Shown here: positions 196 to 31,475 of the stretch, in pieces
Layout of the letters: the number at the start of each line of letters is the position of its first letter
Numbering within the stretch: position 1 is the stretch's first letter
Source: Candidatus Parvarchaeota archaeon
GTDB lineage: Archaea; Nanobdellota; Nanobdellia; WJKC01
NCBI GenBank assembly: GCA_030615175.1
Contig: JAUWZX010000001.1
Span: forward strand, 1-62,565
Reading direction: 5' to 3'
DNA length: 62,565 nucleotides
Notes under the pieces: generated by a model
Database searches by the model: none
What the model saw: only the letters and a program-made list of their open reading frames with translations
Told to the model about the DNA's origin: nothing
Position numbers and translations under genes: made by a program

Positions 196-277
196 AACGA
201 TTAAATAGGATACTTTATTATAAAAAATTATTGATTACGAAAAACTTAAAAAAGAAGTAATTAATCTTTCATGAGTA

Positions 278-712
278 ATGGCTAAGAAAAACAACTATGG
301 TTTAATAATAATACTATTCGTGTTAGTGACGAGCACGCTTGGAGTATTCCAATTCATTAGTGTAAAGAAATTCACTGTGAACCTCGTGGTGGCAATGGAT
401 TCAGGAGTCCCTTACCAAGAAGTTGTAACTGTTGATGATAACTCTACAGCGTTAATGGCTTTAAGCAAGTTAATGAATGTGCAAGTCGAGAATGAGTCAA
501 TAAAGTGTGTTGGGAATTTATGTAATGAAGGAAATAATTCATGGATTACAATGACTCAGGGAGGTATAATGATTAATCCTTACACTTACAAGTTGTCAAA
601 TGATGAATTAATTTACTTCATGTACTTCACTAATGGGACTAACCCATTAACAGACACTAATAAGTCAGAGAAGGATAGGGAAGCACTCATGGAATTACTA
701 AAATTATCTTAG
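278..712 (+). CDS. Membrane-anchored hypothetical protein, possibly DUF4430-like
   Basis: N-terminal TM helix; 'STALMAL...CVGNLCNEGNNSW...YKLSNDELIYF' resembles the DUF4430 pattern. Confidence 0.5.
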   Translation: MAKKNNYGLIIILFVLVTSTLGVFQFISVKKFTVNLVVAMDSGVPYQEVVTVDDNSTALMALSKLMNVQVENESIKCVGNLCNEGNNSWITMTQGGIMINPYTYKLSNDELIYFMYFTNGTNPLTDTNKSEKDREALMELLKLS

Positions 713-744
713 AAATACTTAAAAACGCGTAATTACACTTTAAA

Positions 745-817
745 TAGTGCGGATGATGTGGTGAATACCCCCTGACTAAATAAAGGGATGATGAGCTGGG
801 TAGCTACTGACGCACTA
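745..817 (+). ncRNA. Box C/D 2'-O-methylation guide sRNA
   Basis: Terminal stem TAGTGCG(745-751)/CGCACTA(811-817); C box ATGATGT 753-759; D' CTGA 772-775; C' ATGATGA 788-794; D CTGA 807-810; two 12-nt guides; TATA-like TACTTAAAAA at 716-725. Confidence 0.9.
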
Positions 818-846
818 CTAATTAAACAATTCTTTTAGTCAAGGTT

Positions 847-1152
847 TTATTTTAGGAATTCTAGTTTCTTAATCCTCTTGCCCTTGGCCTGCACGTTCTG
901 CTTACCGCACTGCTTGCACTTGTACCTGAGGTCTAATTTCCTGTTTGACTTAGCATTCCTTTTCCTGTCCTTAGGCGGTTTCTTACTGTAGCGCCCCCTA
1001 TCACCATGCCCTTTAGCAACTTTATCCTTTCTTAAGCGCTGACCTGCCTTCATTGCACCTCTCTTGCCTCCCCTGCCAGCCTGGATTACTTCCTGCTCAG
1101 TCTGCACCCTGCACTTAGGGCAATAACGTTTAATGACTTTAGGCATCTTCAT
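847..1152 (-). CDS. rpl44e: 50S ribosomal protein L44e (eL42)
   Basis: MKMPK..RYCPKC N-terminus, LRYKCKQCGK zinc ribbon, very basic; SD-like GGTGA upstream. Confidence 0.95.
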   Translation of the reverse strand: MKMPKVIKRYCPKCRVQTEQEVIQAGRGGKRGAMKAGQRLRKDKVAKGHGDRGRYSKKPPKDRKRNAKSNRKLDLRYKCKQCGKQNVQAKGKRIKKLEFLK

Positions 1153-1242
1153 AAATTAATCACCATTATCTCTTTCCGTCAACGATTTCTCTTCAGAGAA
1201 AGGGTTGGGGCAGTAACGTTTAATGACTTTAGGCATCTTCAT
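1115..1242 (-). repeat. 38-nt direct repeat (1115-1152 and 1205-1242) of the rpl44e 5' end
   Basis: ATGAAGATGCCTAAAGTCATTAAACGTTA[T/C]TGCCC[T/C]AA, 36/38 identical, 90 nt apart. Confidence 0.95.
1156..1242 (-). CDS. Putative 28-aa upstream ORF MKMPKVIKRYCPNPFSEEKSLTERDNGD
   Basis: Manual translation; TATA-like TTTAAAAG (1274-1267) lies 24 nt upstream of its ATG; stop is 3 nt before the rpl44e ATG. Confidence 0.45.
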   Translation of the reverse strand: MKMPKVIKRYCPNPFSEEKSLTERDNGD

Positions 1243-1276
1243 AGAGAACAAGGAACTAATAAAAGACTTTTAAAGT

Positions 1277-2338
1277 TTACCCTTCAACTCCTAAGAATTC
1301 AAGCATTAAATAATAAGTATAGTCAGAGCAGTTATTGTAAAGGAATCTGATTAATGAAGTGTTAACTATTGCATAAGACTTGCTTACCGAGTCATTGCAG
1401 TAAATTATCTTTCCATTATCCATCATTTTTATTACAGGACTCGTGTTCTCGCAGTCAAACCATTCACTTCTAATGGTTGGGAGGTAATTAATGGTTTTAA
1501 CGCTTAACAGGCTTGAATTAGATATAAAACTCTCATTCGTGTAATGGTCGCATGTCTTTAAGAAAGCGTCTGTTATGTTTTCTTCATAAAAGTCAAGTCC
1601 AGCCATTGACACTGCCTCGCTGCCGTAATAATAATCGCATAAATTATAGCCATTACTGAATAGTAATACTGGGAAATCCTTAACTGGTTCTGAAGCATTA
1701 GTTATGATGAAAATATTAACTTCCCCTTCACTTGAAGCTTCTGATATTAATTCATTTAATGCATCAGTTAAGTCATCAATTAATGACATCCTTTGTTCAA
1801 TGCTTAAGTAATCATAATTATTGTTTAAGCATTCTGCAAAATCACTTAATATTCTTTCAATTAAAGTAAGCCATTCCTGTTCAGTATAATTAGAATCCTG
1901 AGTAATGGAGATTATTGATGAGTTACACATTAAAAGTGACTCGCTTAACACTTCATCAATAACTTCACCTGACAGTGATTCATTTAATGCAAAGTCTAAC
2001 TCAGTAATTAATGACATCACTTGCTCATCGCTTAAGTCATAATTCCTGTCCAAGCAGTCTTCAGTATAACTTAGCATAAAACTAATTAAGTCATCAACTT
2101 CCTCTTCAGTGTAATTAAAGCCTTCAGGTATGAAGAATAATGATGAATTGCACTTTGAAGGCAGTCCTTTTATTGAATCATCAAAAGATTCAATTATTGA
2201 TTCTTCGGAAATATCTAGGTAAGTCAGTTCTGGCGTCGTGCTTGTTTCTAATAGGAGCATGACATATGCCATCACTAACACTACTGATACAATTATTAGA
2301 CTCACTGATGCCACTTTTAATACGTTCACTGTCTTCAT
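1277..2338 (-). CDS. Membrane-anchored acidic hypothetical protein with internal duplication
   Basis: N-terminal TM; two ~52-aa repeats; many NxS/T sequons; ATGA-type overlap with upstream gene. Confidence 0.75.
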   Translation of the reverse strand: MKTVNVLKVASVSLIIVSVVLVMAYVMLLLETSTTPELTYLDISEESIIESFDDSIKGLPSKCNSSLFFIPEGFNYTEEEVDDLISFMLSYTEDCLDRNYDLSDEQVMSLITELDFALNESLSGEVIDEVLSESLLMCNSSIISITQDSNYTEQEWLTLIERILSDFAECLNNNYDYLSIEQRMSLIDDLTDALNELISEASSEGEVNIFIITNASEPVKDFPVLLFSNGYNLCDYYYGSEAVSMAGLDFYEENITDAFLKTCDHYTNESFISNSSLLSVKTINYLPTIRSEWFDCENTSPVIKMMDNGKIIYCNDSVSKSYAIVNTSLIRFLYNNCSDYTYYLMLEFLGVEG

Positions 2339-4044
2339 GGGTAGTCACTCCACTGCAGTAAAGCGTAATCATTACTCCTGTCCTTACTCCCTGAAATCCA
2401 TGTATGCTTTACAGTAGTGCGGCTGTGGCATGTCCAAGACCAGACGTCTGTGCAGTAAACCCAGTTATGACATTTTTTATAATAATAACAAGTAGAAAAG
2501 ACTTTTTCACATCCATTTATTACTACTGCAAGATCGCAATCCCACACCCAGCACGATTGAGTCTTTTGCTGGCATCCATACGTGCTTCCCTTCAAGCCCT
2601 TGCATACTTTATCAACAACTTTTGTATCAGTATAGTAAACGTTTACGCATCCTCCAGGAGTTGGAACTCCTGCCTCTGGCTTTGCATCAAATGAAGTAAT
2701 GCCTTCGCGCCCCATGCAGTCACTATCAGTCTTGCATGCTGTCCATTCCCATCCAGCGCACTCGTTTTGGCTTCCTATAAAGCAGTAAGGCGCTTTCCAG
2801 AAATTCAAAAGCCAGTCCTCAGGGCAGTCACTGTTACTACAGCACTCAGTGCAACTGGTACTGCATTCACTAAGCAGGTTGCAAGAGCCGGCAGGAAGGG
2901 TAGCTGTCTGAAGAGTAGCGCACCAACAATACTCAAATGACCCATAAGGAGGTATTGGTATGGTTTCGCAATATACCAGATTAGGGTCGCCTGGAAAACA
3001 TATTTCGTATGGAGCTCCTAATATTGTGCCTGTTTTTTCCACGTCAGTGCATTCATAGTGTTCCCAATTCTTGCCAACACAAGTAGGAGAGTGAGAGTAT
3101 TTAGTCTCGCAGTCAGAGGCAGCAATGCATTCAATACCTTCATGCCATACGCCATCCTTGCAAATGCCTGTTGGAGCAGTAGGAGGTCCTATTGAGAATA
3201 AATCAGGTGAACCATCAATTGTTCCTAAGTCACAGCAGTTATTCTCCCCTCCCTCACCAACCCATGTCCCGCCTGCAGTCTCGCAAGCGCACTGGGAGTC
3301 ATCCTCGTCAGTGTATACCTGGTCATTACAACAGATGTGCTCTAAGTCATGCCATGCTTCGCCAGCATCGTCGCCGCAGCACGCGTCAATACTGCTAACC
3401 CATGTACTGTCATAATATTCCTCCATCTCGCAGCAGTCAATATCATTATCAGCGTAATCAGTGAATAATGAATAGTCAACATCAAACCCTTCCCAATCCT
3501 CATAACAGAAGTCATCAGCAAAACCTTTAGAAAAAGGACCTAAAGGCGCGGCATCATAATCAAAACAGTAACCTCCACACGTGGGTCTATCACAACCCTG
3601 GTCCACCCAAGGAGTGTACGAACAAGTGCATGAAGAAGTGCATGCAATTGCAGTCCTTGTATACAAGTTTTCTGAAGTATATCCAAGGTCCTTACCGCAC
3701 GCACTCGTGTAAGTGCAGTCACCAACAGCATCACAAGCAGCACCACAAGACTGGGAGCACGTCGTAGTGCAACCGCTGCCAGAACAAGTGTAAGAACCGC
3801 AGTCCGCTAACTTGCAATAAGCATACCAAAACACTTCTTCATCGCCCAGGAACGCTTTTGTTCTTTTACAAACACCACTATATCTGTAACATGCATTACT
3901 ACAACCAGTACATTGAGTGCAATCCCATCCAGACTTTTGAGTTGTGGAACACTCTGCATCCGGTTCCTTATTACAAGCCCATACTGAAAATCCAGGAGTT
4001 AAACTTAAGAGAATCACTGCGAGCATTAATAATAATTTTTTCAT
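2335..4044 (-). CDS. Secreted cysteine-rich surface protein
   Basis: Likely start ATG 4044 (MKKLLLMLAVILL signal peptide, GGTGGT upstream); very high Cys content, CCGDD motif. Confidence 0.8.
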   Translation of the reverse strand: MKKLLLMLAVILLSLTPGFSVWACNKEPDAECSTTQKSGWDCTQCTGCSNACYRYSGVCKRTKAFLGDEEVFWYAYCKLADCGSYTCSGSGCTTTCSQSCGAACDAVGDCTYTSACGKDLGYTSENLYTRTAIACTSSCTCSYTPWVDQGCDRPTCGGYCFDYDAAPLGPFSKGFADDFCYEDWEGFDVDYSLFTDYADNDIDCCEMEEYYDSTWVSSIDACCGDDAGEAWHDLEHICCNDQVYTDEDDSQCACETAGGTWVGEGGENNCCDLGTIDGSPDLFSIGPPTAPTGICKDGVWHEGIECIAASDCETKYSHSPTCVGKNWEHYECTDVEKTGTILGAPYEICFPGDPNLVYCETIPIPPYGSFEYCWCATLQTATLPAGSCNLLSECSTSCTECCSNSDCPEDWLLNFWKAPYCFIGSQNECAGWEWTACKTDSDCMGREGITSFDAKPEAGVPTPGGCVNVYYTDTKVVDKVCKGLKGSTYGCQQKTQSCWVWDCDLAVVINGCEKVFSTCYYYKKCHNWVYCTDVWSWTCHSRTTVKHTWISGSKDRSNDYALLQWSDYP

Positions 4045-15767: not shown

Positions 15768-16252
15768 GGCGGTGGCTGACTAGTTCAGAAGAAAGAGGTT
15801 TTAGTTTCGGCTTAACGTCAGGTATTATAACAACTCTTGGATTAATAATCGGGTTATACTCATCAACTGAGTCAGTAATTGTTGTGTTGGCCGGAATTTT
15901 AAGTATTGCTATTGCCGATTCCTTCTCTGATGCTATGGGAATTCACGTTTCAGAGGAAGCCAAGAAAGGCAGCACTTCAAGAAGTATTTGGAGGGCCACT
16001 ATATACACCTTCCTTGCAAAACTCTTCTTCGCGTTATCATTCATGATTCCAATCATAATATTTGAACTAGGATTGGCATTAATAATCTGCATAACTTACG
16101 GCTTGATATTAATCGCGGTTTATAGTTATTACATTTCAGTAAGGCATGGGAAGAAGCCTTATGCAGCAATAATCGAGCACGTATTAATAGTATTAATAGT
16201 GATTGCAATAACTTACTTTGTTGGAAACTTACTTAAAGGACTTCAGTCATAA
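15764..16252 (+). CDS. VIT1/CCC1-family membrane protein
   Basis: FGLTSGIITTLGL, AIADSFSDAMGIHVSEE. Confidence 0.8.
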   Translation: MRRWLTSSEERGFSFGLTSGIITTLGLIIGLYSSTESVIVVLAGILSIAIADSFSDAMGIHVSEEAKKGSTSRSIWRATIYTFLAKLFFALSFMIPIIIFELGLALIICITYGLILIAVYSYYISVRHGKKPYAAIIEHVLIVLIVIAITYFVGNLLKGLQS

Positions 16253-16262
16253 AAGAATTAAA

Positions 16263-17186
16263 ATGCTTGAATGCGTTGAATTCATTAAACATAACTTGTA
16301 CTCTAAGAAGGAAGAGGTTGAGGATAATTTTAAATTAATAAGTAATCAAAGACCTTGTAAAATAATTGCGGTTGACGGCGGTTCAAGCATTATTAATGAC
16401 GGCGGTTCATGGCTTATTGCTAAGATAAAGACTGCAAGCACTTACTATGATGGTGATAAGAGGATTCCTAAGAAGGAATTAGTGAATAATTATTACATGA
16501 GTTTAATTAATAACTCAGGGAGGCATATTCAGAGATTCAGTCCTGAAATTTCTTTAAGCACTAATTACAGTGGTATTAGGGAGTTAAGCGAGGCCCCGTC
16601 CGTCGCCATGAAAGCCATTGAATTATTTCATGCTGCTGGAAGAATTAATGACTTGGGCAGGGATTCATTATTACTTGTTGACGGGCTCTTGAAAGCTGAG
16701 TCAATTGACCAGGAAAAAGCTCTTAAGGAATTGGAAGAAAAATCCTGTTCTAAGGGCGTTCACGTTATCGGGCTTGCTAAGACTTGCCGGTTCGGTCTTA
16801 AAGGCAGAAGCGTTATCGGGTCCTTGCTGCGGGCTAAACCTGATGATAAGTGGTTTTACCATCCAGTCAGTGGTGAAGAAGTGTTCATTATTAAATTGCA
16901 TGAGAAGAGCAAGTATGCTTACATGCTTGATTTATTCCCTCACTCAATGAATAGCATTGACTTGTTAATGCCCTCATTATGCTTTTACGCCCGTGACCCA
17001 GAACTCCTAGGATACCCTTATCCGTTATTAAGGGCTGATAAGATTGCGCGCGTAGGCGAGCATGAGAAGAAGCAGGAGGAGTCAAGGCTCAGGATACTGA
17101 GCAAGATGGAAGGCTACTCATTCCTGGAAACTGATAAGCGCGCCACTGACATGCATGCGAGAATGGATAAGCGGGCTTATCGATAA
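16263..17186 (+). CDS. nurA: NurA nuclease
   Basis: AVDGG, LLVDG, GLAKT, LGYPYPL..AD..A; probable ATG at 16263; herA/mre11/rad50 nearby. Confidence 0.9.
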   Translation: MLECVEFIKHNLYSKKEEVEDNFKLISNQRPCKIIAVDGGSSIINDGGSWLIAKIKTASTYYDGDKRIPKKELVNNYYMSLINNSGRHIQRFSPEISLSTNYSGIRELSEAPSVAMKAIELFHAAGRINDLGRDSLLLVDGLLKAESIDQEKALKELEEKSCSKGVHVIGLAKTCRFGLKGRSVIGSLLRAKPDDKWFYHPVSGEEVFIIKLHEKSKYAYMLDLFPHSMNSIDLLMPSLCFYARDPELLGYPYPLLRADKIARVGEHEKKQEESRLRILSKMEGYSFLETDKRATDMHARMDKRAYR

Positions 17187-17219: not shown

Positions 17220-17843
17220 ATGAAGTTATATGAGTTTTTCAAGGCTGATGACCGGCTGCTTGACTTGTTTGAGAGGATTAGGGCTGAATTAATAAGCAGT
17301 GACTTAGACCAGGTGTGGAATCATACTAAAAGGGTTATTAAGAATTTATTCATAATCAAGGATTACGTTAATTTTGACTTAAAGAAGGCGCTAATTGCTG
17401 CAATCATTCATGACATAGGATTCATGGAAGTAGTGAATGGTCATGAAATGGTTTCAACACAGATGATGAAGACAGCGCTTGATAAATTATGGGACCACGT
17501 AACAGTTAATGAAGTATGCCACATAGTCGAGGCACATCAATTCAATGGTAAAGTAAGGCCTCAAACAATTGAAGCAAAGGCATTGCATGATGCTGACGTC
17601 ATGGACTACGCTGGTGAGAAGGGAATAATTAATTTATTCAAATTATTAAAGAACTTAGGATTCAGGGATTCAAGGGTGGCGAAGTGGATTCATGAATTAA
17701 CAAAAGATGGATTCATAATCCCTGAAGTCAGGAAGAATCATGATAAGGATTTAAAGCAGACAGAGAACTTCTTCCTGAACTTCGTTAAGGACTTAAGCAG
17801 GGAAAGAGTTGACTTCAAGAAGTATGGAATGGACAATATCTAA
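17220..17843 (+). CDS. HD-domain phosphohydrolase
   Basis: HTKRV, IIHDIG, H, EAH, EAK.LHDADVMD. Confidence 0.85.
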   Translation: MKLYEFFKADDRLLDLFERIRAELISSDLDQVWNHTKRVIKNLFIIKDYVNFDLKKALIAAIIHDIGFMEVVNGHEMVSTQMMKTALDKLWDHVTVNEVCHIVEAHQFNGKVRPQTIEAKALHDADVMDYAGEKGIINLFKLLKNLGFRDSRVAKWIHELTKDGFIIPEVRKNHDKDLKQTENFFLNFVKDLSRERVDFKKYGMDNI

Positions 17844-18313
17844 GACTTTGCCTTTTTCTTATAAAATTTTTTCAACACCTTATTAAAGGTTTTAGAAAAC
17901 TCCTGGTACTTAATTGAATTCGTGTACGGCTTGATTTCTTCATTAATACTATTAACCATATATTTAATACCATCTTCTGTAAAGCATAATAAGTAATCCT
18001 TGATGTTCTCATAATCAGTTTTAACATTGGATTCATCATCAACTAAGTCAAGGAAACTAAAAATGTATAAGTCCTGAAGCCCATACTTTAAGTAAGGAGT
18101 AGTCATTCCCTTAGGACCAGCAATAATGGGCGTCATATTATAACCTTTAGCATTTAATTCAATAAGAATCTTTGACAAATCCTTATAAGAAATTAAGTTA
18201 TTGCCTTTAAAATCCATAATCCTCTTAAAAACGTCAAAGATGATGGGCTCACTCATATTCCCTTTATACACGTTTTCAAGGAAATCCATGAAACAATTAA
18301 CAAGTGTTCTCAT
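17840..18313 (-). CDS. Hypothetical protein
   Basis: 157-aa ATG ORF on the opposite strand inside the repair cluster; no motif recognised. Confidence 0.6.
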   Translation of the reverse strand: MRTLVNCFMDFLENVYKGNMSEPIIFDVFKRIMDFKGNNLISYKDLSKILIELNAKGYNMTPIIAGPKGMTTPYLKYGLQDLYIFSFLDLVDDESNVKTDYENIKDYLLCFTEDGIKYMVNSINEEIKPYTNSIKYQEFSKTFNKVLKKFYKKKAKS

Positions 18314-18377: not shown

Positions 18378-19952
18378 ATGGAATTTGGCAAGGTTATCGG
18401 CGGGTCTGCAAGTGATAAATTATTAATCAGGGTTAAGAGCAGTGAAGAAGCAAGCATTGGAGATATAGTGATAGTAAAGGATGCTGGCTGCACTTACTTT
18501 GTAAAGATTGTTAACGTATTAATAACAAGTCAGTTGCCAAGGCAGTTCATTGAAGACATTGCAGGACAGAAATTAGAGCATGACGTTGACATTAACTTAT
18601 TCGACGAGGAAGACCGGTTCTACAGGCTCTGCGAAGGCAAAGTACTAAAAGTAAGAACTAAGGAAGGATTCAAGCCTCCGAGAAGCATGCCTCACTACTT
18701 CTGCAAGGCAGTAAAGCCATCTCCTAAGGATTTCGAATTCTTAAAGGACAAAGGCGAAGTAAGGATTGGCTACTTGCGGCTTGGGAACAGGATAATAACT
18801 GACTTTGACGTTGCACTCCCTGCTGAGAAATTAATAAGCCACCACGTCCTTGTTTCAGCCGCTACTGGCAAAGGCAAGAGTAATTTCGCCAAAGTATTCG
18901 TAAGCGGCTTACTATCAATACCTAATATTTCATCAATAGTTCTTGACCCTCACAATGAATACTATGGAAGCAAAGGAATTAAAGGCTTAAGAGACCATAA
19001 GGAAAGGAGCAGGATTGAGTACTTCACTCCAAGAGCCAAAGACTTCCCTGGAAGCGAATCATTAAGGATTCATGCAACTGACTTAAGCCCAGGCGACTTC
19101 TATGGAGTAGTCAGGTTCAGTGACGCGCAGCAGCAGGCAATGGACTTAAGTTACAGGACTTACGGCAGGGACTGGGTGAATAACTTACTAACTGAAAAGA
19201 ATATTAAGGAAATAGTTATTGACTTACAGGGCAAAGTAATACCAGCAACCATTGCAAGCCTTAAGAGAAAATTGCTTTACGTGCTTGAATTAGACCCAGG
19301 CACTTATAACGGGTTAGTATTCACACTTAAGGAAAGAATTGAAGCATCACTTTTTGAGAAAGTGAAAAGAGCAGTATTAGAAGGTAAAGTAGTAATAATT
19401 GACACAAGCCTTGTTGGTTTCGAAGCAGAAAAATTAGTAGCATCCAGTATTGTAAGAAAGATTTTTAGCCTTTACAGACGAACTAAGCAGTTAGCTCCTG
19501 AGAAATTTGAAACACTGCCTGAACTAATGATATTATTTGAGGAAGCGCCCAGAGTGCTTGGCAGGGAAGTCCTGACAGGAAGTTCAAATATTTTTTCAAG
19601 AATAGCGCGTGAGGGAAGGAAGTTCAAGGTTGGCTTATGCGCAATAACCCAGATGCCAAGCCTCCTGTCAAGAGAGATACTGAGCCAGATGAATACTAAA
19701 ATAATACTCGGCATTCCAAGCCCTGCTGACAGACAGGCAGTTATTGATTCAAGCGCTCAGGACATTAGCGACGAGTCAGCAGAAATTCAAATGCTTGACA
19801 GAGGGGAAGCAATAATCACGAGCCCGTTCATTGACTTCCCAATGCCGTTAAAGATATACTTATTTGATGACTTAGTAAAACACCATGCGCCAAAAAAGAA
19901 ATCCTACGCGGATAAAAGTAAGAACAGTGAACTAAATATTGGAATCGAGTAA
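18378..19952 (+). CDS. herA: HerA bipolar helicase/translocase
   Basis: HAS-barrel N-terminus, ATGKGKS, DPHNEY, EEA, IAREGRKFKVG, TQMP. Confidence 0.92.
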   Translation: MEFGKVIGGSASDKLLIRVKSSEEASIGDIVIVKDAGCTYFVKIVNVLITSQLPRQFIEDIAGQKLEHDVDINLFDEEDRFYRLCEGKVLKVRTKEGFKPPRSMPHYFCKAVKPSPKDFEFLKDKGEVRIGYLRLGNRIITDFDVALPAEKLISHHVLVSAATGKGKSNFAKVFVSGLLSIPNISSIVLDPHNEYYGSKGIKGLRDHKERSRIEYFTPRAKDFPGSESLRIHATDLSPGDFYGVVRFSDAQQQAMDLSYRTYGRDWVNNLLTEKNIKEIVIDLQGKVIPATIASLKRKLLYVLELDPGTYNGLVFTLKERIEASLFEKVKRAVLEGKVVIIDTSLVGFEAEKLVASSIVRKIFSLYRRTKQLAPEKFETLPELMILFEEAPRVLGREVLTGSSNIFSRIAREGRKFKVGLCAITQMPSLLSREILSQMNTKIILGIPSPADRQAVIDSSAQDISDESAEIQMLDRGEAIITSPFIDFPMPLKIYLFDDLVKHHAPKKKSYADKSKNSELNIGIE

Positions 19953-19985: not shown

Positions 19986-20987
19986 ATGAATCCTGTGAGG
20001 GAGGGAGCATATAAATTTATTAAGCTAACAAAGCCAAGGTATGTTACACTTATTCCTGAAAGAATCATTGACTGCGCAAATGAAACGTATGATGACCCTG
20101 GATTATTCTACCTGCCTAACTGGAAGAACAGGGAAGGAGAAAATGTTTACCCTGATGAAGACTGGAGCAAGGATGACATAATTGACTTCTTCTTCATAGG
20201 TAATTCAATGAACTTCTTATTCTGGCATCTTAATGATAATGGTTTTGAAAGGTATAAAGTGAAATTCGGGGATGAGGAGATTACCGGCTCAAACGCAATG
20301 TTCAGAGGAATAAAGGACAACTTTGACAGGTTCAAGCCCAGCGGCTTAATCAATAATCCTCCTTTCACATTAAAAGAAACTCACAATTATTTAAGGAATA
20401 TTCCATACGCTAAAGAGAGAACAAATATACTGAATGAATTAAGAGAGGTTTTCATGGAAACCGGTCACACCAAATTCAGTGATTATATAGGGAATACAAG
20501 GAAAGTATTTGATTATGGTGAAGGGCTTGTTGAGAGAGTGGTTAAGGACTTTAAGTCATTTAATGATGTTGGATTCTATAAAGGATTTGAATTCCCAATA
20601 TATAAGAGGGCTCAATTACTGCCTGCAATGCTTTACGAAAGACTGGGGCAAAGCGAGTTCCCAGTAGATGATATAAATGAATTAACTGTCTTCGCTGACT
20701 ATCAGGTGCCTAAAGGTTTAGAGTCAAAAGGCTTAATAAAGTACAGTAAAGGGCTTAAGCATAAAATACTTAATCACATCATAATAAAGAAGGACAGTCT
20801 TGAAGAGTATAAGATAAGGACTTGCACGATTGTTGCAAGTGATTTATACAAAAAGGAAGTGAACAAAGCCCGTGAAGAGAATGGACTTGAAGGCAGAATA
20901 AATGACTTAAACGTTGACGGGTTCTTCTGGTACATGGGCACGAAGAATGAAAACCCATTCCACTTGACATACACTACTGCGTACTAA
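19986..20987 (+). CDS. Queuosine salvage family protein (DUF2419/QNG1-like)
   Basis: NSMNFLFW, F.SFND, YKRAQL, LTVFADYQVP, EYKIR, VDGFFW, PFHLTYTTAY C-terminus. Confidence 0.85.
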   Translation: MNPVREGAYKFIKLTKPRYVTLIPERIIDCANETYDDPGLFYLPNWKNREGENVYPDEDWSKDDIIDFFFIGNSMNFLFWHLNDNGFERYKVKFGDEEITGSNAMFRGIKDNFDRFKPSGLINNPPFTLKETHNYLRNIPYAKERTNILNELREVFMETGHTKFSDYIGNTRKVFDYGEGLVERVVKDFKSFNDVGFYKGFEFPIYKRAQLLPAMLYERLGQSEFPVDDINELTVFADYQVPKGLESKGLIKYSKGLKHKILNHIIIKKDSLEEYKIRTCTIVASDLYKKEVNKAREENGLEGRINDLNVDGFFWYMGTKNENPFHLTYTTAY

Positions 20988-21021: not shown

Positions 21022-22164
21022 GTGAGATTCGTTCATTTCAGTGACACGCACTTAGGCGCCAGTAATTTCAGGTTAAGCGAGCGCAGACAGGATTTCTATA
21101 AAGCATTCAAGCAAGTGATAGACTTCTGCCTGGAGAAGAAGCCTGACTTCGTGATTCATACAGGCGATTTATTTGACGCCGGCAAACCTGACAATGAAAC
21201 AATCCTGTTCGCAATAGATGAATTAAAGAAATTAAAAAAAGCAGGAATACGCTTCCTAGTAATACCCGGAAGCCATGACGTAAGCGTTGAAGGAACATTC
21301 CTGTCCATTCTTGAACGCGTTGGACTGCTCACTAACTTAAGCAATCCAAGATACTATGAGAATAATGAAGGGGAAGTAATAGTTAACGGTGAAGTAATAG
21401 GGGACGCGTTCATCTGCGGAGTTCCCGGCAGGAGGGCTAATATTAAGGAAATGTATGAGCACTTAAGAATTAACAAGCCGAAAAGCAAGTTCGGATTATT
21501 CATGTTCCATCACATAGTGAGCGACGTGGCACGCACAGAAGTATTCGCTGACATACCAAAAAGCCTTCTTCCATTAGGAATGGACTACTATGCTGGAGGG
21601 CACTGGCATGAGCATGAAGAATTAAGAGTTAACGGGAAGCCATTAATTTATCCAGGAAGCACTGAACATCAGAATATTGGTTCAATGGAAAAGAACAATG
21701 ATAAAGGATTCATTTACTACGATGAAAAACCATGCTTCGTGAAAGTGAAAACAAGAGAGGTCAGTGTATTAAGGATTAACTGCAATGCATTAACGCCTGA
21801 AGAAATTATGAATAAGTGCCTGAATAATATTGGAACATCAAGCAATGGACTCATAATCCTAAAATTATGCGGTGAATTAAGAAGAGGGCTTAAAGGAGAG
21901 ATTAACAGGGAATTAATAAGAAATGCTTATAAGGATGCTGGCTGGCTTTACTGCGAGGTAAGAATCAAGGACTTAAGCGACCCGGGCAAGTCAGTAGTGA
22001 GTCATAAGAAAACCTTAAGCGAAGTAGAGCACGAGTACTTAAGAAAGCAGGGGTACAGCAAGAAAGAAGTGTCAAAAGCCAAGGCATTCATTAACCTGTT
22101 CGGGCAAAGCCTGACAAGAAATGAATTAAGCAATGCAGTGGCGGAGGCAATGAAGTTATTATGA
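21022..22164 (+). CDS. mre11: Mre11 nuclease
   Basis: HFSDTHLG, GDLFD, PGSHD, GGHWH, YPGSTE; overlaps rad50. Confidence 0.92.
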   Translation: MRFVHFSDTHLGASNFRLSERRQDFYKAFKQVIDFCLEKKPDFVIHTGDLFDAGKPDNETILFAIDELKKLKKAGIRFLVIPGSHDVSVEGTFLSILERVGLLTNLSNPRYYENNEGEVIVNGEVIGDAFICGVPGRRANIKEMYEHLRINKPKSKFGLFMFHHIVSDVARTEVFADIPKSLLPLGMDYYAGGHWHEHEELRVNGKPLIYPGSTEHQNIGSMEKNNDKGFIYYDEKPCFVKVKTREVSVLRINCNALTPEEIMNKCLNNIGTSSNGLIILKLCGELRRGLKGEINRELIRNAYKDAGWLYCEVRIKDLSDPGKSVVSHKKTLSEVEHEYLRKQGYSKKEVSKAKAFINLFGQSLTRNELSNAVAEAMKLL

Positions 22165-24134
22165 AAATCAAGAGCATTGAATTAAACAATATTAGGAGTC
22201 ATAAGTCAAGCAGGATTAATTTTAAGGATGGAGTAACAATACTTTCAGGCAGGACTGGCTCAGGCAAGTCATCATTCCTGTTAAGCATTGAGTACGCATT
22301 ATTCGGAGCAGATGTTAACTTAACTAATAACATGATGTTAAAGCGTAACACGCGTGAAGGATATGTGAAACTCGTGTTCACTGAATCAGGCATGGAATAC
22401 GAAGTTGTAAGAGGCTTAATTAAGAAAGGCAGGAACTTAACAGTCAACCCTGATAAGTTATGGATTAAAAAGGGCGGAGTGAAACTGCCAATTATTTCAA
22501 GAAGCAGCGAAGTTAATGAAAAGATTTTAAAAATACTGCAATACCCCTCAGACGTTAAGCCAAAAGAGTTATTCGAGGTCACTAGTTACGCAAAGCAGGA
22601 TGAGATTAGGAAGTTAATTGAAATGACCAGTGAGAACAGGCAGAAGTACATTGACAGGGTATTGCAGTTAAGCAAGTACCAACTCACCTGGGAGAACCTA
22701 AAGGAATTAATTAATGAATTAAGGAATAAACTGGCAAACCTTAAAGGACTGACTGATTCACTGCCAAGAATCATTGATGAATATGAATCAAGAAACAGGG
22801 AGTTAAAACAAAAACAGGCAACGCTTAAAGAAGTTAATGAAGAATTAAAAAAAATTAATGATGAATCAAAAAAATTTAAAGATGCCTTCTTAAAGAAAAA
22901 AGAAGAATTGGAAAAAGCCTTGAAGTCAGATAATGAATTTAAACAAGTCAAGGCATTAATTAATGAATTAAGAATTCAGGAGAAAGATTTTAAATCAGAG
23001 ATTAAAGAAATCAGGACTGAACTGTTAAGTTATGCTGAATTAAAAGAAGTTAATGTCAAGGAATTAATCAGGAAGCAGGCAATGCTTAACCAGGAGAAAT
23101 TAATGATTAAGGATTTAATAAGAACTCTTCAAAAGGAATTATTAAATATTAATGAGTTAAAAGGCAAGTGCCCTTTATGCAAACAGGAAATTAATGAAGA
23201 GCACAGGCAGGAAATTAAGGAAGAATATCATTCAAGGATGGAGCGTGAAAGCATTAAGTTAGATAAATTAAGCAGTGAATTAAGATTATTGAATGAGGAG
23301 TTAAGCAGGGTAAGAATCATTGAGGAAGAATTAAGCAGGAAGAAATCACTGCAGAATGGTTTGTCAAGCAAGAAGAAATCACTAAATCAGTTAAAAAGCA
23401 GAATAAAGAGTTTATTAAAACGAAAAGATGGAATTAAGACAGCCACTGACTTGGATGAATTAAGGAAGGAGTATGAAGAATTAATTAATAATGATAAGAA
23501 GTTAAGCAGCGAATTAAGTGCTCTTAAAGAAAAGCATGGAATACTGAATAATTTAGTTAATGAATTAAGGGTTGAGTTAAAGGAAAGGAAGGAATTAATA
23601 AAGAACTTAAGCGAGAAAGAGGATGAGATTGGATTGCTTGAGAAGAATTTAAGTTTCATTACAAGGGTTAGGGAGGATATAAGGAATATCAGGGAAGTAG
23701 TCAGGGCAAGGTTCTTAGAAGATTTCAGAGCAGAGTTCCAGAAAAAGTATGAAGAGATAAGAGGCGAAGATGATTACGTAATGGAAATCCAGACTAATTA
23801 CGAGCCAATTGCTTACAGCGGAGGCATTGGAGCACCTATTAATACTCTTTCAGGCGGAGAGAAGACAAGTGTTGCCCTTGCTTACAGGTTAGCGCTTGCA
23901 GAGGTAGCTGCCACTGTTTCAGACGTTGCGCGTTCAGAATTACTAATACTTGACGAGCCCACTTATGGTTTTGACAGGGATGACATTAAGGCACTGCCTC
24001 AGGCCTTAAGAAGCATTAAGACAATACCCCAGATGATAATTGTAAGTCATGAGGATGAATTAAAATCAAGCGCTGATTACAAATACCAAGTTAATAAAAG
24101 AGCAGGAGTTTCAGAAGTCAAACTGCTCGATTAA
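22161..24134 (+). CDS. rad50: Rad50 ATPase
   Basis: GRTGSGKS, central CPLC zinc hook, LSGGE, LDEPT, SH. Confidence 0.93.
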   Translation: MKIKSIELNNIRSHKSSRINFKDGVTILSGRTGSGKSSFLLSIEYALFGADVNLTNNMMLKRNTREGYVKLVFTESGMEYEVVRGLIKKGRNLTVNPDKLWIKKGGVKLPIISRSSEVNEKILKILQYPSDVKPKELFEVTSYAKQDEIRKLIEMTSENRQKYIDRVLQLSKYQLTWENLKELINELRNKLANLKGLTDSLPRIIDEYESRNRELKQKQATLKEVNEELKKINDESKKFKDAFLKKKEELEKALKSDNEFKQVKALINELRIQEKDFKSEIKEIRTELLSYAELKEVNVKELIRKQAMLNQEKLMIKDLIRTLQKELLNINELKGKCPLCKQEINEEHRQEIKEEYHSRMERESIKLDKLSSELRLLNEELSRVRIIEEELSRKKSLQNGLSSKKKSLNQLKSRIKSLLKRKDGIKTATDLDELRKEYEELINNDKKLSSELSALKEKHGILNNLVNELRVELKERKELIKNLSEKEDEIGLLEKNLSFITRVREDIRNIREVVRARFLEDFRAEFQKKYEEIRGEDDYVMEIQTNYEPIAYSGGIGAPINTLSGGEKTSVALAYRLALAEVAATVSDVARSELLILDEPTYGFDRDDIKALPQALRSIKTIPQMIIVSHEDELKSSADYKYQVNKRAGVSEVKLLD

Positions 24135-29051: not shown

Positions 29052-31409
29052 TTATACAACAGTAACGTCTGAGTAAGTTGCACCTGCAGTGTTCAATGTT
29101 GAGTTCGTACCAGTTAAGCCCATGTCTACTCCTAAGGCCTGGCTTGCAACTACTTGCGCTGCCAGTCTAGTGTCCTTGCCAGCATAACCAGCAATGACCA
29201 TGGCTGTCTTATTGTTGAACGCGTTCTCAACTAGTTCAACGTAAGCCCTGTCAACCTCGTAATCAGCTGATGCCCTGCTCTTATTCTCGTCTACCAGGCT
29301 CTTAACTAACTGGTTAACTGCTGGTCCGCCAACCAAGATTATTGGCTTAGCTAATGTACTCGTTGTTATCTCAGTGTCAAGTTTTGCCAGTCCAATTGCA
29401 ATCGCGTTCACAGTCTCTGCTGTTCCGCCAGCGCTTGCAAGAGTCACATCCAATCTAGAGCTATACTCTCCGGCTGTTAAATTGTATTGCACTTTGTCTA
29501 CCTTGCCAAGCGATATGTCGCCTATTCTTGGTGCGTCAGGGTATTCAATTATTACCTGCGTTCCGCTAACCCTTGTCAACTTAGTGCCCCAGTCAATCGT
29601 GTAAATAGTGCTGCCTACACTTGCAATAGTGTTAATTAAGTCTGTTGTGTCAACGCCGCTAGCTAGGGCAATGTCTCCGCTAGTCCATGTTATTGTAACT
29701 GTATCAGTGTTATTCTCAGTTAGTGTCAACGTACCGTTCAATGATGAAGGTGATGACTGCCAAAGGCCTTCCGTGACTGCTGTCAAATTGTACACTAAAG
29801 AGTTGTTTATTATTGGCATGTTCACATCTGACGTGAAGTCCATCACTGTCAAGTTAACCTTCCTACTAACGCATCCTGATGCTGCTGCTGCATCTGTATC
29901 CCAAGTTACGTTAGCGAAAACAGTGTACCCTGTGATATTACCGTGCGTGGCATCGATTACGAACGGGGTTCCGTTATCAATCACTAAGTCTGGATGAGGG
30001 TAACTCCACATAACACTGTTTGACAGATTTAACTGGCTGCCGTCGCCAATGCACTCAAGTTTCCACACTCTGTTCTCCAACCAAGTGAATGTTGTCTCAT
30101 TAGTTGCCGTGCTAAAAGTCCTGTCCTGGATTAATCCAAGGTCCACGTAGTGCAGTGAGTCATTCTCGTCAGTGAATGTTACTTCAAAGCCAGTGCCTGT
30201 AGTTGCGCTTGAACCGTCATTAACTGTTACAATTATTGTATCCTTTGTTGTTGAATTAATTTTTAATGCTGCTGTTGTTACTTTAAAGAATCCTCCAAGC
30301 AACTGGAGTTCTGACCCTGCATTAACGTACGTGCCTAATTGGTTGTAATACTTCCATGCAATTGACGAAATTTCATCATTCAAATCTCCAATGTGAATAG
30401 TCCAGTTAGGCCATGTAGAACTCTCTCTTGTAACTGAATCACTGTCAAGTAATTTCAGTGTGCTCGTTGTCCAGTCAATAACCGCGTCAACCGTGCCGTC
30501 AGTAAGTACTTTCAATGTCTTTAAGTTTATTGTAATGCCTAAAGCATCGCTTGAATAACTTCCGCCTTCACTCCAGTACTTATTGTCAACTAAAACAGTG
30601 CCGTCCGCTTCCTTAATTAACATTCTTGCCTGAGGCGTTTCAGTTGCTGCAGTTATTTCAACAGTAACTCCTGAATCACCAATGTCATACGCTGTGTTTA
30701 ATTCTGCAGTAATGCTTTCTAAAGCACCTAAAGTAACGTTCTGCTCATTGCCATCGCTTGTGTAGTTAATAATCTGGTATTCCTGTCCGTCTGGGAATGG
30801 AATTCCCTTAGTGGCATTGCCTACTCCCTTATTACCTGTTGTTCCTAAATCACTGTTAAAGGTTAGGTTGTATATAATAGCCCCAGGGCCAATGTAAACC
30901 CTGCCATCCTCTTTCTGGTAAAGACCGCTTCCTGTAACTGATAATTTACCTGTTACATTGGCAAATTCGTCGTTAGTTGAGTTAGTAACAGTCTTGTTAG
31001 CAATCCATGAAAAACCAGTGCTGGTACTTATCCATTCCTGTGCCTCGTTGCCTGCTCCAATTGCAGAATAAGAGTTATTCAAATGTCCTGCTGTTGTGTT
31101 TCTCTCTAACACTGCTGTACCGCTTGTTGCTGATGTGGTTTTTGCCTGCTGGGCAAACGCTGCTGCAACCTCTATTGCTCCGGCAATGTCCTTAGCCATT
31201 CCAGCTGAGTTCTCGCACGTTATTGCCGTATTCCAAGTGCATGTACCTACTGCTATGTAAGTATCGAATTCTCCTTCTGTAATGAAAGTACTTGTCAAAG
31301 CTGATAAATCGGCTGTTGCTAATGCCCCGCTAATGGGCATCATTGTCATCAATGCTGCTGATGCTACTGCTGTAATCTTCTTTACAAATTTTTTTGTTTC
31401 AAATTTCAT
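29052..31409 (-). CDS. S-layer protein
   Basis: Signal peptide (start ATG 31409 after GGTGA), ADLS..., IILVGGPAVNQLV, VIAGYAGKDTRLAA; Thr/Asn-rich with many sequons. Confidence 0.88.
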   Translation of the reverse strand: MKFETKKFVKKITAVASAALMTMMPISGALATADLSALTSTFITEGEFDTYIAVGTCTWNTAITCENSAGMAKDIAGAIEVAAAFAQQAKTTSATSGTAVLERNTTAGHLNNSYSAIGAGNEAQEWISTSTGFSWIANKTVTNSTNDEFANVTGKLSVTGSGLYQKEDGRVYIGPGAIIYNLTFNSDLGTTGNKGVGNATKGIPFPDGQEYQIINYTSDGNEQNVTLGALESITAELNTAYDIGDSGVTVEITAATETPQARMLIKEADGTVLVDNKYWSEGGSYSSDALGITINLKTLKVLTDGTVDAVIDWTTSTLKLLDSDSVTRESSTWPNWTIHIGDLNDEISSIAWKYYNQLGTYVNAGSELQLLGGFFKVTTAALKINSTTKDTIIVTVNDGSSATTGTGFEVTFTDENDSLHYVDLGLIQDRTFSTATNETTFTWLENRVWKLECIGDGSQLNLSNSVMWSYPHPDLVIDNGTPFVIDATHGNITGYTVFANVTWDTDAAAASGCVSRKVNLTVMDFTSDVNMPIINNSLVYNLTAVTEGLWQSSPSSLNGTLTLTENNTDTVTITWTSGDIALASGVDTTDLINTIASVGSTIYTIDWGTKLTRVSGTQVIIEYPDAPRIGDISLGKVDKVQYNLTAGEYSSRLDVTLASAGGTAETVNAIAIGLAKLDTEITTSTLAKPIILVGGPAVNQLVKSLVDENKSRASADYEVDRAYVELVENAFNNKTAMVIAGYAGKDTRLAAQVVASQALGVDMGLTGTNSTLNTAGATYSDVTVV

Positions 31410-31475
31410 AATAAATTCACCCGACCTCCTCCGGAGGGGTATTAATAAGACTAAAATTATCAATATATATAAATG
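31410..31475 (-). promoter_or_regulatory. S-layer promoter and structured 5' leader
   Basis: TTTATATA at about 31473-31466; leader ACCCCTCCGGAGGAGGTCGGGTGAATTTATT-ATG with GC hairpin and SD GGTGA. Confidence 0.7.

Follow-up and report, generated by a model that had tools for sequence, protein, structure and literature searches.

A Qng1-like gene with a rebuilt queuine pocket between herA and mre11 of a small archaeon

Genes at the locus

The window, the whole stretch of DNA analysed (62,565 nucleotides), belongs to the genome of a small archaeon (G000), 1.0 Mb in size and 86.9% complete. Its forward strand carries a cluster of DNA-repair genes. A Qng1-like gene stands between herA and mre11, as an earlier note on this DNA had stated. 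The features are as follows.

16218..17186, plus strand: nurA-like nuclease; weak PF09376 match (E 1.5e-4); same-position orthologues in the family relatives G001-G003.
17220..17843, plus strand: HD-domain protein; PF01966 (E 8e-12); precedes herA in 3/3 family relatives, 51-76% identity.
17840..18313, minus strand: 157-aa orphan ORF; 0 matches in Pfam, NCBIfam and PADLOC.
18378..19952, plus strand: herA helicase; DUF87 and HerA models; orthologues 58-78% identical in G001-G003.
19986..20987, plus strand: putative Qng1/DUF2419-like N-glycosidase, 7-substituent pocket rebuilt; PF10343, 154 bits; phmmer to 7ugk/7u07, E 7e-22 to 9e-20; AlphaFold2 and Foldseek.
21022..22164, plus strand: mre11 nuclease; Metallophos and Mre11 models.
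22161..24134, plus strand: rad50; AAA_23, Rad50 zinc hook and Rad50 models.
29052-31463, minus strand: 803-aa S-layer-like protein; PF05124.

The Qng1-like open reading frame starts with ATG and encodes 333 aa. The motifs named in the earlier note lie at residues 233-242 (LTVFADYQVP) and 324-333 (PFHLTYTTAY, the C-terminal end). The gene is separated from herA by 33 bp and from mre11 by 34 bp, with rad50 after mre11. The common strand and the short gaps make co-transcription with the repair cluster likely. In four runs from four studies, one of which may be the source sample, the herA-qng1 junction is bridged by contigs in three and the qng1-mre11 junction in all; since contigs from separate runs bridge both junctions, the gene order is genuine and not a product of assembly. 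Codon use and G + C content are typical of the host genome (CAI percentile 0.75; GC 37.3% vs a mean of 36.6%), on which grounds recent transfer of the gene is rejected. A promoter scan with a sigma-70 model gave counts at chance level.

Family membership and predicted structure

The Pfam model Q_salvage (PF10343) matches the 333-aa product at E 7.7e-45 and 154 bits (cut-off 25), over profile positions 6-270 of 285. Among PDB sequences, phmmer matches Qng1 structures solely (5 distinct sequences). The characterised enzymes, Qng1 of Sphaerobacter thermophilus (StQng1; PDB 7U07, 7U91, 7UK3) and human QNG1/C9orf64 (7UGK), are queuosine-5'-monophosphate N-glycosidases of PF10343 (PMC9881137). An AlphaFold2 model of the product, built on a 14-sequence alignment, has a pLDDT of 92.6. 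By Foldseek it superposes on StQng1 (TM 0.81-0.83) and human QNG1 at TM 0.80-0.83 overall, E about 1e-18. The family call of the earlier note is thus confirmed by profile and model: the product is a genuine member of PF10343 with a predicted Qng1 fold, comprising the HhH fold, Qng1-specific hairpins and sheet, helix 12 and a C-terminal Tyr tail. Both fold and chemistry are already known.

HhH DNA glycosylases (Ogg/AGOG, EndoIII, MutY) share with the protein the HhH Lys/Asp pair (K207, D238) and two-lobe ancestry, but reach TM values of just 0.3-0.4 at E of at least 0.07, and the cleft that holds DNA in them appears blocked here. The cleft-blocking elements of Qng1 (both beta-hairpins, the two-strand sheet, helix 12 and the C-terminal tail) are present in the model, as judged by secondary structure alone. 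The protein is thus predicted to lack the open inter-lobe DNA-binding cleft of HhH DNA glycosylases. A separate EndoIII-like gene is present in the host.

Active site and substrate pocket

Residue positions were assigned from the phmmer alignment with 7u07, which is numbered as in PMC9881137; beyond St residues 59-307 a close homologue from Thermomicrobiales served as the bridge. Residue roles for StQng1 are those of PMC9881137. Identity to StQng1 and human QNG1 is about 25%. Common to the protein and to both enzymes are the fold, the cleft-blocking insertions and the residues that act on ribose and guanine. Catalytic and ribose residues are kept (St to query: D231 to D238, K199 to K207, F75 to F79, Y232 to Y239, C-terminal Tyr to Y333), as are the guanine-face set (D298 to D311; the I203/W302 sandwich to L211/W315) and N72 (N76), R80 (R89), E267 and H316.

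The differences from StQng1 and human QNG1 (D69N, D207M, Y93S, W94N, W299G, K233Q, Q306T) lie elsewhere in the site. The cyclopentenediol pocket is altered at Y93 (S102), W94 (N103) and W299 (G312); P46 (P44) and W48 (W46) are kept, and H53 is probably Y55, the register there being unsure. In Qng1 a D69-N72-D207 relay passes a proton from the side-chain amine of queuosine (Q) (PMC9881137). This relay is broken in the query, with D69 replaced by N73 and D207 by M215, N76 remaining in the place of N72. In the 5'-phosphate site R89 is kept, K233 is replaced by Q240 and Q306 by T319, with K320 adjacent. D69, Y93, W94 and D207 are present in both characterised enzymes. According to the main text of PMC9881137 (its Supplementary Fig. 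S12 is also relevant), complementation with Q is poor for Ala variants at D69, N72, D207, D231, Y232 and K233; 3/6 of these positions are changed in the query.

The four closest proteins (P0002-P0004, P0057), with uninformative names, have N73 and S102 in common with the query and are all without D207. D207 is found in 54/218 aligned homologues, a sample biased by its collection with a D207-less profile. Judged from the alignment, the pocket changes are a property of the group, beyond the single protein. Because the queuine pocket is rebuilt, a different guanine-like base is probably freed.

7-Deazaguanine pathway of the host

The sole tRNA-guanine transglycosylase (TGT) found in the host genome is of the archaeosine type (arcTGT): it scores 406 bits with TIGR00432 (cut-off 350), stays far below the cut-off of TIGR00430, and aligns with the arcTGT of P. 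horikoshii (1iq8) at E 4e-113 over the full length, including the PUA end. Head-to-head with it lies a gene of ~424 aa in which a RaSEA-like radical SAM domain is fused to a DUF5591/ArcS core; the same pair is present in G002 and G003. No queuine-inserting TGT was found (genome 87% complete). This determines the TGT type, as the earlier note had proposed. Together with the rebuilt pocket and the lack of a queA match, it means that the note's suggestion of queuine being scavenged to feed a TGT of bacterial or eukaryal type is not upheld.

L001:162-1553, minus strand, and 1471-3108, plus strand (G000:C5:351954-354900): RaSEA-ArcS fusion and arcTGT pair.
L019:1474-2277, minus strand, and 246-1379, minus strand (G000:C5:517032-519063): QueC-like gene, then 377-aa radical SAM gene.

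In the host genome (87% complete) queD was not found, nor was folE by tblastn. Among the four family genomes, of which G002 is 96% complete, folE2/mptA, canonical queC and queA are found in 0/4 each. With arcTGT present and queD, folE, mptA and canonical queC not found in an 87% complete genome, the cell appears to need outside preQ0. No QPTR/YhhQ preQ0 importer was found in the host; the same-genus genome G001 carries a QPTR/YhhQ gene with three in-frame stops (L201:1501-1962; G001:C3:3446-3907), and this broken gene points to salvage in the lineage. A preQ0 salvage pathway in archaea has been predicted (PMC5372724). Since preQ0 nucleoside and nucleotide arise in cells by tRNA degradation (PMC11298593), a substrate for such salvage exists. 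The host also has a nucleoside-scavenging set of an AMP phosphorylase (over cut-off), an R15P-isomerase-like gene (below cut-off) and RuBisCO.

A divergent QueC-like protein is encoded at C5:518260-519063 (PF06508, 33 bits). It keeps SGGxDS and RN, but does not conform to the YxQxHxxE, YPDC and zinc motifs by which bioRxiv 10.64898/2026.04.08.717055 defines QueC; owing to this partial loss it is rejected as a canonical QueC. A protein search found 2 other such proteins, and one of 60 relatives carries it (G051, which also has a Qng1-like gene with a cysteine cluster and in which no TGT was found). A second radical SAM gene lies 1.3 kb beyond the pair.

Distribution in archaea and TGT type

PF10343 is matched in 40/401 genomes of the phylum. 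PF01702 is matched in 215/401, most scores being typical of bacterial-type TGT (the tally includes six unpublished genomes), and bacterial-type tgt, queA and queH are reported in DPANN (PMC8204110); the view in the earlier note that archaea lack Q pathways is too strong. Thirty archaeal PF10343 loci were tabulated, 21 in a group that mostly keeps D207 (18/21) and 9 of the query type. Bacterial-type TGT is found in 14/21 genomes of the former group, close to the phylum baseline of 215/401; in the latter, no genome has a TGT of any type (0/9).

In 13 further archaeal carriers, taken from the best 80 of 527 hits and judged by score and frame length, TGT is bacterial-type in 8 and archaeosine-type in 5, with both in 4 and none in 4 (among the last the unpublished G436). 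The 22 other archaeal D207-less carriers, 13 of them from the best 80 of 527 hits, thus comprise 13 with no TGT, 8 with a bacterial-type and 5 with an archaeosine-type enzyme (4 with both); canonical queC is present in 4/5 of those with archaeosine-type TGT. Among 60 relatives, PF10343 is found in 0/19 that bear arcTGT, including G001-G003 with the same pathway gap. The D207-less variant therefore tracks no TGT. Mutual exclusion of the variant and TGT, suggested at first by 0/9 carriers vs 215/401 genomes, was rejected when TGT was found in 9/13 further archaeal genomes (best 80 of 527 hits).

Near 133 Qng1-like loci, arcTGT or a RaSEA-ArcS fusion is found in none. The sole TGT match among them is at L028 (G211:C39:20720-22716), where a D207-keeping, canonical-looking Qng1 gene of a small archaeon directly adjoins a bacterial-type TGT (two-piece match). 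This gene is a better candidate for true archaeal queuine salvage than the gene at 19986-20987, and the D207-keeping archaeal group as a whole is a better candidate for work on Q than the query variant. At L072, L074, L085 and L086 the archaeal copy has a gene for PNP, phosphodiesterase, NT5C or deoxyribosyltransferase as its neighbour; most archaeal Qng1-like neighbourhoods are unrelated to nucleotide turnover. Metagenome scans for close relatives with context gave 0 loci in one case and 12 distant loci in another.

Six D207-keeping archaeal genes (L032, L036, L039, L041, L044, L046) have an N72S/D298N/W299D-E pocket and adjoin one family of ~315-aa proteins, which presumably resemble Lrp/AsnC-type regulators. 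L005:1303-2400, L006:1423-2301 and L007:1318-2103 encode HhH proteins distantly related to Qng1 that carry a cysteine cluster at the C terminus; this cluster may resemble the Fe-S motif of EndoIII.

Bacterial and viral copies

D207-less copies occur at 59 mostly acidobacterial loci (L090-L151 minus three archaeal; best 80 of 527 hits). They lie amid genes of nucleoside hydrolases, PfkB kinases, pyrimidine phosphorylases, DeoC and nucleoside transporters, with a nucleoside hydrolase beside 46/59 and a ureide permease beside 22/59 among these hits. The acidobacterial proteins resemble the query in having no D207, Y93, W94, W299 or K233 and in falling on the same side of the tree, with weak support. 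They differ from it in acids at 69, 72, 92 and 94, in their nucleoside-catabolism operons and in their hosts, most of those tested having bacterial TGT and queC. An acidobacterial ureide permease whose gene neighbours qng1 takes up preQ0 and preQ1, not Q, a result that its authors found unexpected (PMC11130926). The qng1 gene of that study is probably of the D207-less type.

Viral Qng1-like loci number nine, 8 of them distinct (L152-L160, IMG/VR contigs of 20-351 kb). Among the full-length copies, 7 of which are distinct, none has D207. A queC-like, queD-like or folE gene lies within 8 kb in 3/8 distinct loci: queC-like at L152, folE at L159, and queC-like and queD-like at L154/L155, where MazG and dATP/dGTP diphosphohydrolase genes are also found. 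DpdA is not matched in 5 viral records, which are 24-73% complete and for which the control was silent. A second viral scan for close Qng1-like relatives found none.

In a quick IQ-TREE analysis (99 rows) the query and the four closest proteins form a clade (support 100). This clade joins the D207-less archaeal and acidobacterial proteins weakly (SH-aLRT 82), apart from the St-like proteins. FastTree groups the clade with the viral copies (0.91) and IQ-TREE does not, so that a viral origin is not claimed.

Proposed function

The protein very probably acts as a glycosidase on free nucleotides, with no role in break repair or in making Q-tRNA. Of the earlier suggestion of a repurposed enzyme, the part concerning another 7-deazaguanine nucleotide is plausible and forms the leading reading; the part concerning action on modified DNA together with the repair genes is not upheld. 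The leading reading is put forward tentatively: the enzyme may be an N-glycosidase that frees a non-queuine, neutral 7-deazaguanine, for example preQ0, as a possible supply for arcTGT.

By Qng1 chemistry it would bind and cleave a guanine-like ribonucleoside, or its 5'-nucleotide, that stems from the breakdown of nucleic acids. The guanine face would be read by D311 between L211 and W315, the ribose held by K207, F79, Y239 and the carboxylate of C-terminal Y333, and the glycosidic bond broken by D238. The substrate would be a 7-deazaguanine that lacks the charged cyclopentenediol side chain. PreQ0 or its amide is the most likely; a pocket that has lost its acids makes the archaeosine base less so. 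On chemical grounds a nitrile-bearing base should leave more easily, with no amine relay needed. The freed base could then supply arcTGT, after which the RaSEA-ArcS fusion would carry out the last steps to archaeosine. A neutral 7-deazaguanine is favoured because the pocket is neutral and polar, no amine relay remains, and preQ0 can be used by the host; the transporter result and the viral neighbours point the same way. Against preQ0 stands the acidobacterial pocket, which by alignment differs from that of the query (acids at 69, 72 and 94) and whose tree link to it is weak (SH-aLRT 82). The gene is also no regular part of a route to archaeosine, 0/19 arcTGT-bearing relatives carrying PF10343; canonical queC accompanies archaeosine-type TGT in 4/5 of the other carriers that have it, no Qng1-like locus has arcTGT nearby (0/133), and no QPTR importer was found in the host.

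A wider version of this proposal makes the protein the base-release step of archaeosine salvage. Nucleotides derived from host tRNA or from modified DNA would yield preQ0 or its amide, the QueC-like protein might dehydrate the amide to preQ0, and arcTGT with RaSEA-ArcS would rebuild archaeosine; the D207-less part of PF10343 in small archaea, Acidobacteria and large viruses would be a subfamily of preQ0/preQ1 nucleoside hydrolases, explaining the transporter beside qng1. This scheme is rather unlikely as a whole.

General nucleotide scavenging is a close rival of preQ0 release, because most archaeal carriers are without TGT (13 of the 22 others, 13 of the 22 being from the best 80 of 527 hits), and is itself somewhat doubtful. 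The protein would then hydrolyse guanine-type nucleotides, whether ordinary or damaged (guanosine/GMP, inosine, m7G, 8-oxoG), for scavenging or clean-up. It would have no part in tRNA modification, and would either pass ribose phosphate to nucleoside degradation or clear unusual nucleotides from the pool. The AMP phosphorylase, R15P-isomerase-like gene and RuBisCO of the host would suit such an activity, and bacterial copies in nucleoside-catabolism neighbourhoods and the archaeal copies at L072, L074, L085 and L086 near nucleotide-turnover genes are consistent with it. The D207-less state is also the commoner one in the biased sample of homologues (D207 in 54/218). Most archaeal neighbourhoods are, however, unrelated to nucleotide turnover, and GMP, AMP, CMP and UMP are not substrates of the characterised Qng1 enzymes (PMC9881137). 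No acidic residue is evident near N7, as would usually be needed for purine hydrolysis (m7G exempt), and the transporter result (PMC11130926) points to 7-deazaguanines.

It is improbable that the enzyme still hydrolyses queuosine, Q-5'MP or a bulkier Q derivative that fits the opened pocket, to degrade or detoxify products of bacterial tRNA rather than to make Q-tRNA. The fold and catalytic set are those of Qng1, P46 and W48 are kept, the loss of Y93, W94 and W299 would enlarge the pocket rather than close it, and 8/22 other archaeal carriers have a bacterial-type TGT (13 of the 22 from the best 80 of 527 hits); but D69 and D207, at each of which Ala variants complement poorly (PMC9881137), are both lost, neither bacterial-type TGT nor queA was found in the host, and the D207-keeping archaeal group (18/21 loci; bacterial-type TGT in 14/21 genomes) is the better candidate for such an activity.

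No literature was found on archaeal, viral or pocket-altered Qng1, nor on an enzyme freeing preQ0 from nucleosides or nucleotides, most subscription journals being outside the scope of the search. Much of PF10343 carries the annotation queuosine salvage and yet is without the queuine pocket. The substrate of the variant bears on this annotation, on the unexpected transporter result (PMC11130926) and on the supply of archaeosine precursors in small symbiotic archaea.

Relation to the DNA-repair cluster

In 3/3 family relatives herA abuts mre11, with a 35-bp gap in the same-genus genome and overlaps of 4 bp and 1 bp in the other two. PF10343 has no match in G001-G003. No qng1-like remnant is found at their herA-mre11 site, and matches elsewhere in these genomes are short and at chance level. 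With herA abutting mre11 and no remnant in the relatives, one insertion in the query lineage is the simplest reading; the gene is then an accessory, lineage-specific insertion with no shown tie to DNA repair.

By tblastn at E <= 1e-4, nurA, HD, herA, mre11 and rad50 are found near Qng1-like genes at 0/133 loci, 75 of which exceed 9 kb, with 1.5-kb flanks at the G-handle loci and several duplicates among them; 3/3 control loci are positive. A link between the qng1-like gene and the repair cluster is therefore rejected, and the synteny in other archaea that the earlier note had proposed to look for is absent from these loci. DpdA (NF041059) has no match in the host genome and exceeds its cut-off in 0/61 genomes; no control genome passes the cut-off either. 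PADLOC gives no match.

A DNA-linked role with HerA-NurA and Mre11-Rad50, by excision of 7-deazaguanine or damaged bases or by clearing modified deoxynucleotides released by these nucleases, was raised in the earlier note and agrees with the common strand and 33-34 bp gaps (co-transcription likely), with the HhH glycosylase ancestry and with the carriage of the family by large viruses, some near preQ0-synthesis genes, but is highly improbable in view of the missing linkage, the cleft-blocking elements kept in the model, the TM of 0.3-0.4 to DNA glycosylases, the lack of a DpdA match in the host (with no control over cut-off) and of a PADLOC match, and the uptake of a second, unrelated insert by the same cluster. 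The finding points to no new DNA-repair or defence system.

The second lineage-specific insert is the orphan ORF at 17840-18313 (minus strand), which lies between the HD-domain gene and herA in the host alone and has no counterpart in G001-G003. In G002 nurA is followed by an extra gene of another kind. The HD-domain gene at 17220-17843 is a conserved extra member of the nurA-herA-mre11-rad50 cluster, present in 4/4 family genomes (51-76% identity in G001-G003), and its product is a possible candidate nucleotidase.
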